Source: Vulcanimicrobiota bacterium (GTDB lineage Bacteria; Vulcanimicrobiota; Vulcanimicrobiia; Vulcanimicrobiales; Vulcanimicrobiaceae). From it: 64,000 nt of DNA. How positions within the stretch are numbered: the first letter of the stretch is position 1; the number at the start of each line of letters is the position of its first letter. The position numbers and the translations under genes are program-made. The notes beneath the pieces are model-generated. The model saw only the letters and a list, made by a program, of their open reading frames with translations. It was not told the DNA's origin and made no database searches. This document shows positions 39,281 through 45,258 of this stretch, one piece after another. The stretch covers positions 544,001-608,000 of the forward strand of contig CAWGBN010000006.1 of the NCBI GenBank assembly GCA_963820825.1, given 5' to 3'.

Positions 39281-40126
39281 CTACTCGCCGGTTGCAATTG
39301 GGCGCGAGGGGTCGGAGACCCACTCGCTCCACGAGCCGTTGTAGAGACGCGACCCTTCGAGGCCGGCGTACTGCATCGCGAAGTGTCCGGCCGCCGCGGA
39401 GACGCCGGAGCCGCATTGATGCACGATGCGCGTGGGATCGAGGCCCCTGCGCTCGAACTCCGCGCGTAGCTCGGCGCGTGACTTCAGTCGTCCGTCGGGC
39501 GCGAAGTTCTCCTTGAACCAGCGGTTGAGCGCACCCGGAATGTGTCCCGCGACGGGATCGATCGGCTCCGTTTCGCCGCTGTAGCGCTCTTTTGCGCGCG
39601 CGTCGAGCAGTTGCATCGCCGGATCGTTGAGATGTTCGCGCACGTAGGCGGCGTCGACCAGATACTCGGGATGCAGGCGGAGCGCAAGATCGCCCGCGCG
39701 CACGGGCTGCGGCGGCGCGGTGCTGACGGGATGACCGGTGAGATTCCACGCGGTGAATCCGCCGTCGAGTACCGCAACCGCATCGTGACCGATCCAGCGC
39801 GTGAGAAACCAGAAGCGCGGCGCGAACATGTCGCCACCTCCATCGTAGGCGACGATCTGCGTTGCGTTACCGACGCCGCACGCGCGCAAGAAGTCCGCGA
39901 ACACCTCCGGTTGCGGTAACGGATGGCGCCCGTTGCTCCCGGTCTTCGTTCCCGCTAAGTCGTGCTCGAGGTCGGCGAAGAATGCGCCGGGAACGTGCGA
40001 CTCCTCGTAGAGCCGCCGGCCGAGTGCGAAATCGGCGAGCGAGTGGCGGCAATCGAAGACGACGAGATCCGGCGCGCCGAGCCGCTCGTAGAGGTCCTCG
40101 GCCGAGATGATCGTCGTAAAGCTCAC
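39281..40126 (-). CDS. Sulfurtransferase (tandem rhodanese, SseA/MST-like)
   Basis: HVPGA, GRHPLP, GHIPGA, CGSGVSA, YNGSWSEW. Confidence 0.93.
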   Translation of the reverse strand: MSFTTIISAEDLYERLGAPDLVVFDCRHSLADFALGRRLYEESHVPGAFFADLEHDLAGTKTGSNGRHPLPQPEVFADFLRACGVGNATQIVAYDGGGDMFAPRFWFLTRWIGHDAVAVLDGGFTAWNLTGHPVSTAPPQPVRAGDLALRLHPEYLVDAAYVREHLNDPAMQLLDARAKERYSGETEPIDPVAGHIPGALNRWFKENFAPDGRLKSRAELRAEFERRGLDPTRIVHQCGSGVSAAAGHFAMQYAGLEGSRLYNGSWSEWVSDPSRPIATGE

Positions 40127-40512
40127 CGGAGGTTGATGATGGTTTTCGCGCCGTCCTTCGACTCCGCGCCTTCGGCGCTACGCTCGGGATGACTCGAATC
40201 GCCGAACGCTTCTTGTAGCGTGGTTTGCAGTTCGCCGCTCTCGGCCATCGGGCCGAGAATGTCGGTATCGCCGTAGAAGGAGCCTTTGATGAAGACCTTC
40301 GGCAGCGTCGGCCAGTTCGTCATCGCGGCGAGCGCTTCGCGCTTGGGCATGTTCTCCAGCACGTCGACGACTTCGAACGGATAGCCGAAACGATTGAAAA
40401 ACTCGATCGTCTCGAGCGTGAAGCCGCAGCGCGGCGCGGTCTTGGTGCCCTTTCCGTAGACGAGAATCGTGTTCTCGGCGATTTCGCGCTCGATCTCTTC
40501 TTGAAAATCCAT
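40123..40512 (-). CDS. grxD: Monothiol glutaredoxin (Grx4-like, CGFT)
   Basis: KGT...PRCGFT, NWPTLPKVF, GDTD; downstream of bolA. Confidence 0.85.
   Translation of the reverse strand: MDFQEEIEREIAENTILVYGKGTKTAPRCGFTLETIEFFNRFGYPFEVVDVLENMPKREALAAMTNWPTLPKVFIKGSFYGDTDILGPMAESGELQTTLQEAFGDSSHPERSAEGAESKDGAKTIINLR
40153..40193 (+). repeat. REP-like repeat inside glutaredoxin 3' end
   Basis: GTCCTTCGACTCC-GCGCCTTCGGCGC-TACGCTCGGGATGAC; reads HPERSAEGAESKD on the coding strand. Confidence 0.7.
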
Positions 40513-40516
40513 TTCG

Positions 40517-40753
40517 TTAGCCCTCCGCAACGATTGTTTTGAGTTCGACGGCGTGAACGCGGCCGTCTTTGAGTGCCTCTTTGAGCGCGCCGTAGACCAG
40601 CTGGTGCTGCTCGATCAGACTCTTCCCCCGAAATTGCTTAGAACGTACCGTCACATTGAAATGGTCCATCGTTCCGGTGCGATCGACGATGCGGACCTCC
40701 GCATCCGGAAGACCGGCCCGGATCAAGTCGGTGAGCGCCGCATCTCCGATCAC
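40517..40753 (-). CDS. BolA family protein
   Basis: DHFNVTV, FRGKSLIEQHQLVY, VHAVEL. Confidence 0.9.
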   Translation of the reverse strand: MIGDAALTDLIRAGLPDAEVRIVDRTGTMDHFNVTVRSKQFRGKSLIEQHQLVYGALKEALKDGRVHAVELKTIVAEG

Positions 40754-41004
40754 GAACGCAGCCGGGGCGAACCGGCCTTGAGCGCCTCGGCCAGACCGCG
40801 CGCTTCGCCGAGCGTCTCGGGAAGGCGAGTCGCGCCGCGAGAGAGCGCCGCCGTGACCCCGCTTGCGAGGACGACGCCGGTAACGCCGAGCAAGACCGCG
40901 GGAATTCCGCTGGCCTTTAACGGTCCGATCTCGATCGTGAAGGTGCGCTGTACGCGCGCGAGACCGCGAAAGAACGCGCGCAGGGAACGGCCGGGGGTAT
41001 TCAT
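40750..41004 (-). CDS. Small hypothetical membrane protein
   Basis: GTGA coupling to bolA; one TM; start uncertain. Confidence 0.55.
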   Translation of the reverse strand: MNTPGRSLRAFFRGLARVQRTFTIEIGPLKASGIPAVLLGVTGVVLASGVTAALSRGATRLPETLGEARGLAEALKAGSPRLRS

Positions 41005-41136
41005 CGTCCGCGTTCTTACGTCGCGGCCTTGGGGAAGGCCTGGCCCGAGCCGCACTGAAGCGAGCCGCCACCAACCCGCTGTTTTGGCGCGCTCTCGCGA
41101 GGCGCGGGAGCCGAAAGGCCCGAATGCGCGCATGAA

Positions 41137-42144
41137 GTGACCGGCGTTTCTCGTTCGCTCCTCGCATTGGTAATCGCGGCGGCCGCGGCCGCGGCCGTGG
41201 TCGCGCACGGGACGATCGACGTTATCGCCGATTTTTTGGTCGCGCACGCAAGCTACGACGACGTTTCCAGCCACGACTCGCGCGGGCTGGTCGTTACGAT
41301 CGCCGCTCTGTTCGCCGGTGTCGTTGCCTTGCATGGCCTGCGGCTCTGCTGCGACGTGGCGGCCAATCGAACGCTTGCGTCGATGCGGGCGCCGAGCTGG
41401 CGGAGCGCACCCTTCTTCGTCGGTGCGACGATGCTGCTCGCATCGGTGATCGTCCCTTTGATGGAGGTATTCGACTCGCGATTGGCCGGTACGACGGTGA
41501 CGGACCTCGACGACGCGTTCGGCGGATCCGTGCTCCTCGGCCTGGTCACGACGCTCGCATGCGCAGCCGTCACCGCGATCGCAGTGTTCGCATTGGCGCG
41601 CTGGATTCTCTCGCATCGAGAGCGTATCATAGCCGCGATCGCCGGGATTACTCGCTCCCGTTCGCAAGCGCTTACCGGCCTTCGGCGCTCGCGCACCCTC
41701 GCCGATGCTCCAATCTGCCCGCGCAGGCTTTCCGCACTGCGGCGCGGTAAGCGCGCCCCTCCCCGTCAAGCCCTTCGCCACCCACAAACACTCGATACAC
41801 ATTGCGAGGGCAGATATGCTTCCTATGCTTATTGCGGCGTGCTGCATGATCGGCGGCACGGTCCAGACGCCCGGCGGCGCGCCGATTGCTCACGCGCAGC
41901 TCTCGCTGCGCGGTCCGGCCACCACCCAGACGACGACCGACGACAAAGGCGAGTTCTCGGTTCAGATTCCTCCGGGGCGATACGATCTCGCCGTCGTCGC
42001 GCGCGGATACTTGACGGTGACCGTCAACACCGGCGAGGTCACCGACGGTTCGCGAATCCGGGTCGTGCTCGAGCCGAGCGATACGCCGAAGCTGCGTACC
42101 ATCGGACAAGTCACGGTGAACGGCGGATTTACGCTCGATCGTAA
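41137..42144 (+). CDS. Four-TM upstream protein with RAPP motif (candidate ribosome-arrest leader); true 3' end uncertain
   Basis: Four hydrophobic helices, Arg-rich linker, RRGKRAPP with RAPP at 41752-41763; ORF continues out of frame into the receptor gene. Confidence 0.7.
   Translation: MTGVSRSLLALVIAAAAAAAVVAHGTIDVIADFLVAHASYDDVSSHDSRGLVVTIAALFAGVVALHGLRLCCDVAANRTLASMRAPSWRSAPFFVGATMLLASVIVPLMEVFDSRLAGTTVTDLDDAFGGSVLLGLVTTLACAAVTAIAVFALARWILSHRERIIAAIAGITRSRSQALTGLRRSRTLADAPICPRRLSALRRGKRAPPRQALRHPQTLDTHCEGRYASYAYCGVLHDRRHGPDARRRADCSRAALAARSGHHPDDDRRQRRVLGSDSSGAIRSRRRRARILDGDRQHRRGHRRFANPGRARAERYAEAAYHRTSHGERRIYARS
41770..41811 (+). promoter_or_regulatory. Putative SD-sequestering hairpin of the TonB-dependent receptor
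   Basis: GCCCTTCGC (41770-41778) can pair with GCGAGGGC (41804-41811), which contains the GAGGG SD before ATG 41816. Confidence 0.5.
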
Positions 42145-44248
42145 CGTGATCCCGGAGATGGACGTCTCACGCGCGCAGATGGATGCGCTCGGATACACGC
42201 AAGTGCTCGAGGCACTCCAGCAAGTGCCGTCGGTGGTCATTCAGCGGCCCGATGCGGGTGCGCCGACGACGCCCGCGGTCGTCTCGCTGCGTGGGCCCGA
42301 TCCGTCGGAGGCAATGGTCACGCTCGACGGCCAGCAGCTCAACGACGGAAATACCGGCGATATCGATCTCTCGCAGTTTGCGGTGCCGGCATTCAATAGC
42401 GTCAACGTCACCGAGGGTCTCGGGCCAACCGACTTGGAGGGAAGCAATACGTTCGGCGGCGCGGTCAACTTCGTCTCGCTGCGTCCGACGCAAGAGGATC
42501 ACTTCAGCTTATCCACCTCGGCGGGCTCCTACGGAGCGACCCAGACTTGGCTCAACGCGACCGGCGCGATCGGAAAGCTCGGCTACGCCATCGCCGGCGA
42601 CAACTTCCAGCAGATCGGCCAAGTAAACGAGTACGATTGGATCGTTCCTTCGAACAATTTGCCGACCTACTGCGGCCCGCAGACCAAGACGAAGACGCCG
42701 AACTGTCCCTTCCAAGCGCACCTCGGTTCGACGATTTCGGCGCGACTGGGACTCGTCAACCTCGATTACAATTTCTCCCAGCGCTCGGACGTCGGTTTTC
42801 GCGTCTTCACGCTCGGGGACAATCGCGACGAATCGAGCGCATTGAACGGAATCGCCGGGAATCCGACCTGCGTCTTTAGCGGACCGGGGCCGGGCTGCGC
42901 CTTCGGACCGTCGGGATCGGGGTCGCAGAACGAGGTGGCAAATCCCGCCTACGGCGACCACATCGGCCAGGGCAGCGCGAACTTCGCGCAGAGCATCCGC
43001 GCCTACGACGGCTACTCGCGAACGCCGTTGGGCTCCGGCATTCTTCTAGCCGACTTTTTTGCGACCGACAACAACATCGATTTCCAAGGCGGTGCGATTT
43101 CGCCGTACGACGTCTCGCACGTCGACACGCGCTACAGCGAGGGACTTTCGTGGGGCAGGACGTTCGATGGAGGCGAGTTCGCATTCGGCGGATATCTGCG
43201 CCAAGAGTCGCTCGCCGGGCTGGGCATCACCGAGACGCTCGGGCAGGGCATTCAATCGTACTTCTTCCGCGGCGCTCAACAGTTCGGAAACGTCAGGCTC
43301 TCCGGCGGACTCTACGATTCGCAGTACTCGACCTTCGGCAACACGCTGAACTGGCGGTTGGGATTGAGCGACGATCTCGGCTCCTCGAGCGTGGTGCGCT
43401 TCTCGGCCGGGACCGGCTTTCGGGCGCCGTTGCTCGCCGAACGCTACTTCTTCCCGCCCGTTACCGTAAACGGAAAGACCCAGCCGAATCCCGCGCTCGG
43501 GCCGCCCGATCAGAACTGCGTCGTTCCCAACGGAAATCCCGACGAACTGCCGGAGCACGCGACCGAGTACGAGCTCAGCTTCTCGCATCTCTTCTCGAGC
43601 CGTTCGAGTCTCGACGTGTCGATCTATCGCTCGAACCTGCGCGATACGATCGAGAACTATTACCCGGGCGGCGGCGCGCAGAGCTTCTGCGGAACCGCGC
43701 TCGGCTTTGCTTACGAGATTCCGATCAACATCGGCAACGCCGTCTACGAAGGCGCCGAAGCGCGATACAAGCAGACGTTTCCGAGCTTGAACCTCACGAC
43801 GACGCTCTCGTACGGGCTCAACGTCGCCTATCCGTACGCGCTCGGCCCGTGGGTGTCCAACCCCACGTCGGGCGGCACGCTCGTCGACAACCAGCAGTTC
43901 CTCGGCGTACCGCAACAGCAAGGTTCGGCCGTCTTCACCTGGGCGGAGAACGGCTGGCACGCATCCACCGCGTTTACGTTTGCGGGTAGAAATAACACGC
44001 TCTCGCAGCCGCCCTATACGCTCATCGACGGCGCCATCGGCAGGAACTTCGGCCGGCTCGACTTCACGATCGCGGCGACGAACATCTTTAACGCCGCCTC
44101 GGGTCCGTTCACGCTCTACGATGCCGGAGTTCCCTATCGCGGGCTCTACTCCGGCCCGAACAACACGTCGTACCTGGCCAATACGCCGACCGACGCGCTC
44201 TTCATCGAGCCGGCTTCGGTCAAGTTCATCGTAACCTTCCACCAGTGA
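41816..44248 (+). CDS. TonB-dependent receptor with N-terminal carboxypeptidase-regulatory-like domain
   Basis: TTTDDKGEF...PGRYDL; plug SLRGPDP...VTLDG; FGGAVNF; GTGFRAP; LPEHATEYE. Confidence 0.9.
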   Translation: MLPMLIAACCMIGGTVQTPGGAPIAHAQLSLRGPATTQTTTDDKGEFSVQIPPGRYDLAVVARGYLTVTVNTGEVTDGSRIRVVLEPSDTPKLRTIGQVTVNGGFTLDRNVIPEMDVSRAQMDALGYTQVLEALQQVPSVVIQRPDAGAPTTPAVVSLRGPDPSEAMVTLDGQQLNDGNTGDIDLSQFAVPAFNSVNVTEGLGPTDLEGSNTFGGAVNFVSLRPTQEDHFSLSTSAGSYGATQTWLNATGAIGKLGYAIAGDNFQQIGQVNEYDWIVPSNNLPTYCGPQTKTKTPNCPFQAHLGSTISARLGLVNLDYNFSQRSDVGFRVFTLGDNRDESSALNGIAGNPTCVFSGPGPGCAFGPSGSGSQNEVANPAYGDHIGQGSANFAQSIRAYDGYSRTPLGSGILLADFFATDNNIDFQGGAISPYDVSHVDTRYSEGLSWGRTFDGGEFAFGGYLRQESLAGLGITETLGQGIQSYFFRGAQQFGNVRLSGGLYDSQYSTFGNTLNWRLGLSDDLGSSSVVRFSAGTGFRAPLLAERYFFPPVTVNGKTQPNPALGPPDQNCVVPNGNPDELPEHATEYELSFSHLFSSRSSLDVSIYRSNLRDTIENYYPGGGAQSFCGTALGFAYEIPINIGNAVYEGAEARYKQTFPSLNLTTTLSYGLNVAYPYALGPWVSNPTSGGTLVDNQQFLGVPQQQGSAVFTWAENGWHASTAFTFAGRNNTLSQPPYTLIDGAIGRNFGRLDFTIAATNIFNAASGPFTLYDAGVPYRGLYSGPNNTSYLANTPTDALFIEPASVKFIVTFHQ

Positions 44249-45258
44249 CGGAGGTGATGCGGGCCCTTCGTCTCCACGAGATCGGCGGCCCCGCAAACCT
44301 TCGCGTCGATGCGGTCGGCATTCCCGAGATTCGCGCCGACGAAGCGCTGGTGCGGGTGCGGGCAGCCGCGCTCAATCGCCGCGATCTCTTCATCACGCAA
44401 GGGCTATATCCGAAGATCCGCCTGCCGGTCACCCTTGGATCCGACGGCGCGGGTGAAGTCGCCGCGCTCGGCTCGGTCGTCGCCGATCTCGAAGTCGGCG
44501 ACGAGGTCGTGATCGATCCGATGCTGGGGTGGGGCGACGACCCGCGCGTCTGGGATGCGGGCAACGCGACGATTCTCGGCATGCCGCGCGAGGGAACCTT
44601 TGCTCAGTACGTCGCGGTGCCGCTCGACAACGTCTATCGTAAGCCGAAGCCGCTCTCGATGGAGGAGGCCGCGGCTATACCGCTCGCCGGCTTGACGGCG
44701 TACCGCGCGCTCTTCACCCGCGGCGCGGTGAAGCCGGGGGAGACGGTGCTCGTCACCGGTGTCGGCGGCGGCGTTCAGACCTTCGTGCTGCTCTTCGCCA
44801 AGCACGCAGGCGCACGCGCGATCGTTACCTCGAGCAGCGATGCAAAACTCGAGCGCGCGCGCGCACTCGGGGCCGACCTCGCGATCAACTATGCGACGAA
44901 CCCTGAGTGGACGACGCTGCTGCGCTCGACCGGACCGGTCGACCTCGTCGTCGACTCGTCGGGCGGCGAGACGTTACGCAAGGCGCTCGACATCGTACGT
45001 CCCGGCGGACGGATCGTCGTCTACGGCGGCACGAACGGCGACGCCACGATCAAACCCTTTCCGCTCTTCTGGAAACACGTAACGATCCTCGGCACGTCGA
45101 TGGGGAGTCCGCAAGACTTCGCCGCGATGCTCGAGCTATTCGAGGATGGGCTGCGGCCGGCCGTCGACCACGTCTTTGCGCTCGACGATTCCGTTGCCGC
45201 GTTCGAGCGTTTGGCCGCGGCGGATCAGTTCGGGAAGATCGTCGTTCGGACCGGCTAG
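44245..45258 (+). CDS. MDR-family (quinone) oxidoreductase
   Basis: AALNRRD, LGSDGAG, TGVGGGV, QFGKIV; alternative ATG at 44257. Confidence 0.9.
   Translation: MTEVMRALRLHEIGGPANLRVDAVGIPEIRADEALVRVRAAALNRRDLFITQGLYPKIRLPVTLGSDGAGEVAALGSVVADLEVGDEVVIDPMLGWGDDPRVWDAGNATILGMPREGTFAQYVAVPLDNVYRKPKPLSMEEAAAIPLAGLTAYRALFTRGAVKPGETVLVTGVGGGVQTFVLLFAKHAGARAIVTSSSDAKLERARALGADLAINYATNPEWTTLLRSTGPVDLVVDSSGGETLRKALDIVRPGGRIVVYGGTNGDATIKPFPLFWKHVTILGTSMGSPQDFAAMLELFEDGLRPAVDHVFALDDSVAAFERLAAADQFGKIVVRTG

Follow-up and report, generated by a model that had tools for sequence, protein, structure and literature searches.

Leaders whose products carry RAPP or RGPP are already known ahead of genes for TonB-dependent receptors, and the one case studied, CruR, is a small peptide with a Cys motif that acts through Rho. 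The subject of this report is an open reading frame (ORF) directly upstream of a TonB-dependent receptor gene in a genome of the phylum Vulcanimicrobiota (assembly GCA_963820825.1, contig CAWGBN010000006.1). The window is the 64,000-nucleotide (nt) stretch at positions 544,001 to 608,000 of this contig, and positions below are counted from its first letter. The ORF probably encodes a regulatory arrest-peptide leader of the RAPP/RGPP class that has a polytopic sensor and a SecM-like output through a hairpin over the Shine-Dalgarno (SD) sequence of the receptor, so that arrest would set the receptor ON and ligand-driven release would set it OFF. The leader most likely toggles receptor synthesis by something that is sensed outside the inner membrane.

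Both RAPP and RGPP cause a robust arrest that resists elongation factor P (Fujiwara et al. 2025, PMC12992588). According to the accessible text of that survey, ORFs with these motifs are enriched ahead of TonB-dependent receptors, 'almost all' of them with a signal sequence, and seven examples from S. lividans arrest in vitro, among them some with four transmembrane (TM) segments that lie ahead of metal genes and extracytoplasmic function (ECF) sigma factors. The 4-TM leaders of S. lividans (SLIV_18480 and SLIV_33595/33605) are like the present leader in that they are small membrane proteins with a C-terminal RAPP or RGPP ahead of metal-related, TonB receptor or ECF sigma genes, and a His/Met metal site is likewise predicted there in a 4-TM leader. 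The TonB-receptor leaders of the survey are unlike it in that almost all have a signal peptide rather than multiple TM segments; kinship with the S. lividans proteins is a comparison by description only. The names Eremiobacter, Baltobacter and Cybelea do not occur in the supplements of the survey (all but one file), though members of the family may still be in its gene lists. The accessible literature on RAPP/RGPP, CruR and SecM leaders makes no mention of the present family.

CruR (Bp2923) of Bordetella pertussis, a CXXC-containing DUF2946 (PF11162) protein, blocks Rho and thereby holds bfrG on, which copper ends by relieving the arrest (Roy et al. 2022, PMC9426467). A ribosome stalled on CruR has one of the two Pro codons in its P site and the other in its A site (PMC12992588). 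As far as these texts are accessible, the two leaders share an upstream ORF with RAPP a few residues from the C-terminus, a TonB receptor gene next to it and a conserved sensor motif whose distance to the arrest motif is constant, and in CruR, as proposed here, the arrest keeps the receptor on until metal relieves it. CruR differs in being a small signal-peptide protein with CXXC that responds to copper and acts by Rho termination across a 162-bp spacer, whereas the present leader has four TM segments, no CXXC, no match to PF11162, a spacer of 52 nt and an SD-sequestering stem. A polytopic protein with no Pfam match and no CXXC, it appears to fall outside DUF2946.

An SD stem-loop switch of the kind proposed here operates in SecM-secA, and MifM-yidC2 and VemP-secDF2 are switches of the same kind. 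The three differ from the present locus in that they serve Sec or YidC targets and are released by the translocation machinery, and the arrest sequence of SecM (RAGP) stands in another context. In SecM-secA, a stem-loop hides the secA SD (Sakiyama et al. 2021, PMC7897499); there too, in the accessible account, the downstream SD lies in a stem-loop with its 5' arm at the stall site, and the stalled ribosome prevents the stem. In the same source no SD hairpins are predicted for the RAPP peptides ApcA, ApdA and ApdP by their discoverers. CutF of Rhodobacter capsulatus is a further relative in principle, a nascent exported protein in which stalling couples extracytoplasmic copper to downstream translation, but as described in the accessible text it is a small exported protein ahead of a multicopper oxidase and not a polytopic receptor leader (PMC9973294). 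The present family appears from its sequences to combine a RAPP/RGPP arrest site of the CruR-like class with a SecM-type output. The original prediction for this locus, which was made from the DNA letters, had pointed to the RAPP arrest of CruR/DUF2946 ahead of a TonB receptor and the SecM stem-loop that a stalled ribosome opens, and the literature bears out both precedents.

The leader frame and its conserved arrest motif

The translation of the leader begins VTGVSRSLLALVIAAAAAAAVVAHG from a GTG start codon. The original prediction described a 4-TM protein with an Arg-rich linker of about 50 residues, RAPP at its end and no CxxC, and all of these are found in the window. The first 209 codons contain four hydrophobic segments in Kyte-Doolittle windows (approximately residues 1-36, 47-76, 90-113 and 127-160), and AlphaFold2 models four helices (residues 2-34, 47-76, 88-116 and 132-159) with a mean pLDDT (predicted local distance difference test) of 73.7. 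The 51 residues from 159 to 209 include 13 Lys and Arg residues. The protein has Cys at positions 71, 72, 141 and 193, none of which form a CxxC. Loop 1 carries a net acidic charge, and Arg is abundant in loop 2 and the C-terminal region; the positive-inside rule would therefore make loop 1 periplasmic. The predicted topology is N-in/C-in, with a cytoplasmic loop 2 and with loops 1 and 3, both acidic, on the periplasmic side. An end of the element near 41818, as first proposed, was not upheld, as there is no stop there and the frame stays open to the first stop (335 codons), overlapping the receptor gene out of frame. The guanine and cytosine content at third codon positions favours the leader frame as far as about 41620 and, from about 41700 onwards, that of the receptor, and the 126 codons past the motif are unconserved. 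A promoter and terminator scan found no promoter at the locus and terminator-like sites at chance level, and an Rfam scan of 40500-42500 gave no match.

The sequence K-R-A-P-P occupies codons 205-209 (41749-41763). By analogy with the CruR toeprint (PMC12992588), the ribosome is predicted to stall with its P site on CCT (41758-41760, Pro208) and its A site on CCC (Pro209). The motif is retained throughout the family, as R[AG]PP is found at about residue 206 in 68 of the 70 relatives returned by a search of 5.8 billion proteins (query coverage is only 46% and 35% in the other two), in 135 of 145 representatives of a 50% clustering (80 RGPP and 55 RAPP; the remaining 10 match the profile only partly) and, among distant metagenomic copies, in 51 of 53, with two cut near contig ends. 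The tail behind the motif is unconserved and runs to 3-10 residues in 115 of the 135 representatives and to 1-186 codons among the genomic copies. Among 81 distinct leader-receptor junctions, the leader frame is open past the receptor start in 49 and stops 5 codons after the motif in 28, which are paralogs. The lack of conservation in the tail and the variable position of the stop imply that the protein ends, in functional terms, at the motif. CCT serves as the first Pro codon in 69 of the 81 junctions, compared with 4.8% of Pro codons genome-wide, and CCTCCT and CCTCCC together make up 3.1% of Pro-Pro dicodons (1081 long ORFs of the same genome). The locus has what the RAPP/RGPP leader class has: R-[A/G]-P-P near the functional C-terminus of a protein under 300 residues, with typical relatives ending 3-10 residues later, TM segments (the four helices) and a downstream gene on the same strand that the leader could control.

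Residue conservation was scored on an alignment of 136 diverged family members. Conserved at 90-100% are H24, D28, D32, Y40, D41, H46, S48, R49, M109, E110, D113 and G129-G130-S131, and all conserved polar residues are located in TM1 (outer half), loop 1, TM3 (outer end) or loop 3; they are predicted to lie on the periplasmic face. The His residues singled out in the original prediction are all present (H24 in AHG, H37 and H46 in HASYDDVSSHD, H66 in LHG), and their conservation is uneven: it reaches 98-100% for H24 and H46 and 73% for H37, and H66 is without conservation. No Cys occurs among the positions that are at least 60% conserved. The spacing from ME..D to GGS is 20 residues in 110 of 119 members, and a spacing of 76-79 residues between GGS and the motif Arg is found in 124 of 133. 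As TM4 ends about 50 residues before the stall site, all four helices of the model should be beyond the exit tunnel when the ribosome stalls at Pro208/209, with a short tether left.

Relatives of leader residues 1-211 were found in 34 of 36 other genomes of the same genus, in none of 5 genomes of a second family and in 2 of 19 of a third. A profile search of 301 genomes of the phylum detected the leader in 108; it is present in 104 of 206 genomes of its own family, 58 of 58 of its own genus, 3 of 22 of one other family and none of 72 from 19 further families. The 70 matches among 5.8 billion proteins are all annotated as hypothetical and none has a Pfam domain; those named belong to Candidatus Cybelea, Tumulicola and Eremiobacteraeota, plus a few metagenome-assembled genomes (MAGs) otherwise labelled. 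A hidden Markov model of the family matched 278 clusters (50% identity) among 1.84 billion representatives at E <= 0.001. The 76 genomic loci collected come almost throughout from Eremiobacteraeota, Vulcanimicrobiota or Cybelea, and the named matches of a second profile search are all Eremiobacterota-type MAGs. The nearest clusters in the ESM Atlas are two from Vulcanimicrobiota and one mostly from Actinomycetota, the latter an unconfirmed lead.

Annotation and fold searches placed the leader in no described family. Pfam gave no family for the window leader at E <= 0.01 and none of relevance for 13 relatives at E <= 1, no NCBIfam model matched, and Foldseek returned nothing from the PDB at E <= 0.001 with the leader model. 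VIA-align gave Z scores of 8.6-10.2 to YbbP, FtsX, BceB and the pneumococcal ABC transporter 5xu1, and of 7.4-7.6 to LolC and MacB; with 6-12% identity, these generic 4-helix matches are below the level that is meaningful for helical bundles. A likeness of the model to an FtsX/MacB-type 4-TM domain, the TM domain of type VII ABC transporters, would be a structural resemblance only.

The link to the receptor gene, which was part of the original prediction, holds almost throughout the family. A receptor homolog follows within 500 nt in 82 of 87 leader copies (those of the window and the 76 genomic loci), all 82 with the motif; the other five comprise one receptor-like ORF cut by a contig end, one ORF of 442 residues without a Pfam match and three contig-cut cases. 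For the distant metagenomic members, 45 of 47 downstream ORFs were submitted to Pfam (two near-duplicates were left out), and 42 of these contain CarboxypepD_reg, with Plug and the barrel where long enough; the remaining three are two ECF sigma factors and one fragment of 57 residues without a match. In the window the receptor ATG is 52 nt past the Pro-Pro codons. This distance is 47-64 nt in 79 of the 81 junctions (exactly 52 nt in 35) and 73 nt in the other two, and is independent of the position of the leader stop. NCBIfam gave only generic TonB models for the receptor, all below cut-off, and these do not indicate a substrate.

Three other arrangements of the two genes were considered and not adopted. 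An open receptor frame upstream in the window suggested a frameshift fusion of leader and receptor at the stall site; in 8 of 36 junctions of the orthologous clade, however, this frame does not stay open from the motif to the ATG. An in-frame fusion, suggested by open-frame values near 1100, is rejected for the paralog in the same genome, where RGPP is followed by a stop after 5 codons. As for the receptor start, an upstream ATG, 4 nt past the Pro-Pro codons, is missing in the window and several relatives, whereas the +52 start with its SD is universal.

Table 1. Features of the leader-receptor locus (window positions; topology and arrest are predicted)
Feature	Position	Strand	Remarks
Leader/sensor ORF up to and including the putative arrest motif	41137..41763	+	209 codons, four TM segments; alignment with homologs extends from residue 1 to the motif
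Polar cluster in outer TM1 and predicted periplasmic loop 1 (H24, D28, D32, Y40, D41, H46, S48, R49)	41206..41283	+	92-100% conserved
M109-E110 and D113 (outer end of TM3), G129-G130-S131 (before TM4)	41461..41529	+	90-100% conserved
Arg-rich linker, predicted cytoplasmic, residues 159-205	41611..41751	+	Sequence poorly conserved, length fixed
Putative arrest motif R-A-P-P, residues 206-209	41752..41763	+	CGC GCC CCT CCC; R206, P208 and P209 invariant in 136 aligned members
Leader-frame continuation, unconserved	41764..42144	+	Stop 42142-42144; overlaps receptor start out of frame
Stem 5' arm (anti-SD)	41770..41778	+	GCCCTTCGC; +13 to +21 from the predicted P-site codon
Stem 3' arm with Shine-Dalgarno GAGGG	41804..41811	+	GCGAGGGC; window fold and ortholog alignment
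TonB-dependent receptor	41816..44248	+	CarboxypepD_reg, Plug and beta-barrel (Pfam); start kept in orthologs

Pairing of the receptor Shine-Dalgarno sequence with the predicted stall site

The stem that was proposed from 41770 onwards over the receptor SD can be drawn with 8 bp, a bulged T41774 and a loop of 25 nt. Its 3' arm holds the SD GAGGG (41806-41810), which ends 5 nt before the ATG, and the minimum free energy (MFE) of 41752-41821 is -11.6 kcal/mol. In the orthologs the 5' arm is longer and begins 3 nt earlier than that of the window. The junctions were folded from the Arg codon through the receptor start codon, and shuffling was restricted to the first 28 nt, which comprise the motif codons and the following 16 nt. 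In the MFE structures at least 4 of the 6 SD bases are paired with these 28 nt in 79 of the 81 junctions, compared with 52% after shuffling, so that, as in SecM, the downstream SD has its pairing partner at the predicted stall site or beside it. As a binding partner of the SD region, the stall window ranks above 95% of 150 control windows drawn from the leader coding sequence in 56 of the 81 junctions, where about 4 are expected.

This pairing recurs across subfamilies with different sequences, which bears out the conservation expected of the hairpin in the original prediction. The SD partner in the window orthologs is (GAU)GCCCUUCGC just past the motif. In subfamilies B and C the partner is the Pro-Pro codons CCUCCU themselves (41 of 51 junctions), and in a subclass with a GUG start there is further pairing of the Arg-Gly codons CGCGGA with UUCGCG at the start codon. 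In an alignment of 36 junctions from the orthologous clade, 85.4% of the cells of the stem are paired, compared with 35-54% when it is slid by 1-3 columns. Two-sided changes occur in 5 of its 11 pairs, and the covariation score of 0.125 (0.090 when shuffled) was reached by 1 of 500 shuffles.

The effect of a stalled ribosome was estimated from the energy needed to open the ribosome-binding site (RBS). The median across the 81 junctions falls from 14.0 kcal/mol in the free RNA to 9.6 kcal/mol with the footprint of a stalled ribosome, against 10.9 kcal/mol for random 20-nt windows of the receptor coding sequence. The median drop is 4.2 kcal/mol, and it is at least 3 kcal/mol in 55 of the 81.

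A further hairpin is seen in the GUG-start subclass immediately 3' of the Pro-Pro codons, where the sequence varies and self-complementarity is kept. Examples are GAUGGUGC...GCACCAUC and GGUGGUGCC...GGCACCAUC, and the hairpin occurs at loci L067, L076, L077, L083 (10134-), L087 (6550-), L095, L103 and others.

Proposed control of the receptor and its alternatives

In the scheme inferred here, which covers the arrest, the topology, the ligand, the release by force and the sign of control, the leader would be translated and its four helices inserted into the inner membrane, with the invariant His/Asp/Glu/Met/Arg cluster on the periplasmic face. K-R-A-P-P would then arrest the ribosome, its P site being occupied by Pro208 and its A site by Pro209. 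The receptor SD would be paired in the free mRNA with the arrest codons or with the 4-16 nt after them, and the parked ribosome would occupy or unwind the anti-SD arm and so allow a 30S subunit to start on the receptor 52 nt downstream (ON). When the membrane domain bound its periplasmic ligand and folded, tension passed on through the fixed-length linker would release the arrest, the ribosome would depart, and the stem would re-form and stop receptor synthesis (OFF). The ligand is most likely a metal cation or a metal chelate imported by the receptor, in view of the invariant His/Asp/Glu/Met cluster, the CruR precedent and the His/Asp-rich stretches in paralogous receptors; haem or another cationic ligand is possible. 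The reading as an arrest-peptide sensor, with which the analysis began, is supported, and each refuting test named with it that can be run computationally came out in its favour.

A broader form of this scheme can be put forward tentatively. The nascent polytopic protein would be a one-piece trans-membrane sensor, in which metal binding in a periplasmic His/Asp/Glu/Met pocket is relayed mechanically through the fixed tether to its own arrested ribosome, and the rare-codon CCU CCN would double as the anti-SD of the receptor. Every paralogous TonB receptor, of which a genome has 2-5, would come with a dedicated copy, as would the occasional ECF sigma factor, and the lineage would regulate outer-membrane uptake largely without transcription factors or FecR-type signalling. 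On the favoured reading too, the family joins a putative RAPP/RGPP arrest site to a conserved SecM-style SD switch with the arrest codons themselves as anti-SD, both attached to a large, strongly conserved and unannotated 4-TM domain whose invariant residues are predicted to face the periplasm. With at least 278 clusters at 50% identity and clearly covarying parts, the family is a well-defined system for the question of how an extracytoplasmic ligand releases a ribosome. If true, the scheme would explain how an uncultured soil and peat phylum regulates many outer-membrane receptors.

Several observations weigh against the proposed scheme, most of all in the window. The window stem is not above chance in GC-rich DNA (rank 0.24 among 150 control windows), and its weight is that of its conservation across relatives and not of the window alone. 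In the window and its three closest relatives the stem begins 13 nt past the P-site codon, so that a stalled ribosome would melt only the outer 3 of 8 pairs. A footprint extending to +15 leaves a shifted 6-bp SD remnant in the window, lowers the opening energy by only 1.0 kcal/mol (13.3 vs 12.3) and keeps the SD paired in the constrained fold (unpaired probability 0.00 vs 0.01); the window is among the weakest SD-hairpin cases of the 81 junctions. In 11 of these junctions the change in opening energy is under 1 kcal/mol, and the median unpaired probability of the SD rises only from 0.03 to 0.21 (footprint -15 to +14 around the P site). RNAalifold did not recover the stem from the 36 mixed junctions, and the closing helix of the GUG subclass (14 sequences) shows no two-sided compensatory change, only conserved or wobble pairs. 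Distant metagenomic members have a looser spacing of 50-96 nt, and only 14 of 51 have CCT first. The relatives share ancestry, so all counts overstate the independent support. Fold and family searches of the leader give no hint of a ligand, and CruR, the characterised TonB-receptor leader, signals through Rho and not through an SD hairpin in the accessible account (PMC9426467).

That last point leads to an output on transcription as in CruR, in which the stalled ribosome would block Rho on a C-rich, G-poor spacer, its release would terminate transcription and the SD stem would be secondary. Blocking of Rho is the sole mechanism demonstrated for a RAPP leader of a TonB receptor, as far as the published account is accessible (PMC9426467), the loop of the window stem (41779-41803) is C-rich and G-poor, and distant members have spacers of 70-96 nt and no CCU bias. 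This output is nonetheless unlikely, since most copies have a spacer of 52-58 nt, which is mostly folded, where B. pertussis has 162 bp, and since the SD pairing and the choice of rare codons would be left without a role.

The conservation of the membrane domain and of the gene pair also suits an arrangement without ligand sensing by the nascent chain. The 4-TM protein would be a working inner-membrane partner of the receptor, and translation of its 3' end, with a Pro-Pro pause at most, would melt the stem in an unregulated coupling. Any ribosome that crosses the Pro-Pro codons opens the pairing, the membrane domain is as strongly conserved as a functional protein, and leader and receptor are always adjacent. 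A finished protein would, however, be odd with a C-terminal tail and stop that are free to vary, and 49 of 81 leaders run out of frame into the receptor. R[AG]PP is also a proven strong arrest sequence that proteomes avoid, according to the accessible text of PMC12992588, and a linker of fixed length and free sequence suits the geometry of a tunnel or of a force. Unregulated coupling is quite unlikely on these grounds.

The weak opening in the window raises the question of the sign of control, as in the ortholog group of the window the arrest might keep the stem mostly closed (OFF), and released ribosomes would activate the receptor by reading through the stem, the SD and the start. The stall footprint takes only 3 of the 8 pairs in the window and the model keeps the SD paired, and the leader frame is open for 11-126 codons past the motif in this group and crosses the receptor start in 28 of its 30 junctions. 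The same spacing and pairing logic is, however, found in the paralogs that stop 5 codons after the motif (28 of 81), most orthologs have their arm 3 nt closer and would lose 6-7 of 11 pairs on stalling, and a ribosome that crosses the RBS also occludes it. Such a reversal is very unlikely. A monitor of membrane insertion, in which helix insertion driven by Sec or YidC releases the arrest and the receptor reports insertion capacity rather than a ligand, is highly improbable: the leader is polytopic and the RAPP arrest peptides ApcA, ApdA and ApdP as well as SecM and MifM operate in this way in the accessible sources, but TonB receptors and, rarely, ECF sigma factors are encoded downstream and never sec or yidC, all helices should already be outside the tunnel with TM4 ending about 50 residues before the stall, and the invariant charged cluster would be unnecessary for insertion.

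Receptors, paralogous units and neighbouring genes

The leader is often present in 2-3 copies per genome, some about 3.2 kb apart, and tandem units of leader and receptor occur. The receptors of the window clade (41816-41860 in the window; L033-L066, L070 and L074) begin with ML[PH]xL[IV]AACC, directly followed by CarboxypepD_reg. They lack a positively charged signal peptide of normal length, and IAAC/VAAC resembles a lipobox; the paralogous receptors have ordinary signal peptides. Several paralogous receptors (L078, L079, L088, L092, L098, L100, L101, L102, L104 and L157) carry His/Asp-rich runs such as HDDHDRDH and DHDNDHDHDHHHD right behind the signal peptide, which suggests divalent metal binding. 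At L091 (6658-7000) the receptor frame is broken soon after the usual GUG and a homologous frame resumes about 390 nt past the motif, which is either a pseudogene or an assembly error.

Other genes take the place of the receptor at a few loci. Two distant leaders are followed by an ECF sigma factor with Sigma70_r2 and r4 (L113:4136-4717 and L127:1020-1598). At L072 (6550-7942) a leader with the usual AAGGAG...GUG junction precedes a lipoprotein-like ORF of 442 residues (signal ending in VVMAGC) that has no Pfam match.

The genome of the window contains a second unit about 16 kb upstream of the window (L109:3846-7148; C6:524846-528148). Its leader has 224 residues and ends in AKRGPPQTRFA, its receptor has a normal signal peptide, and the neighbours, rpiA and a phospholipase C/acid phosphatase-like gene, are uninformative on the substrate. 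A third multi-TM protein of this genome, of 218 residues, is encoded on the reverse strand (L110:4123-4776; C6, approximately 296.3-299.8 kb) and ends in GLRAPPPFVLFTYFAT with the codons CCG CCT CCT. A CarboxypepD_reg protein of 916 residues (L110:1320-4067, reverse strand) follows about 85 nt further on, about 52 nt past the stop of this ORF, and is preceded by GAGAGGAG. Homology of the 218-residue protein to the present leader family is undetectable with hhalign (probability 9.7%), and from its sequence it looks like an independent leader of the same design.

Upstream of the leader in the window is a row of BolA-like, monothiol-type glutaredoxin and rhodanese genes on the reverse strand (39281-40900). 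The gene downstream of the receptor (44245-45258, forward strand) belongs to the zinc-type alcohol dehydrogenase family, and its GTG start at 44245 gives a 4-nt overlap with the receptor stop.

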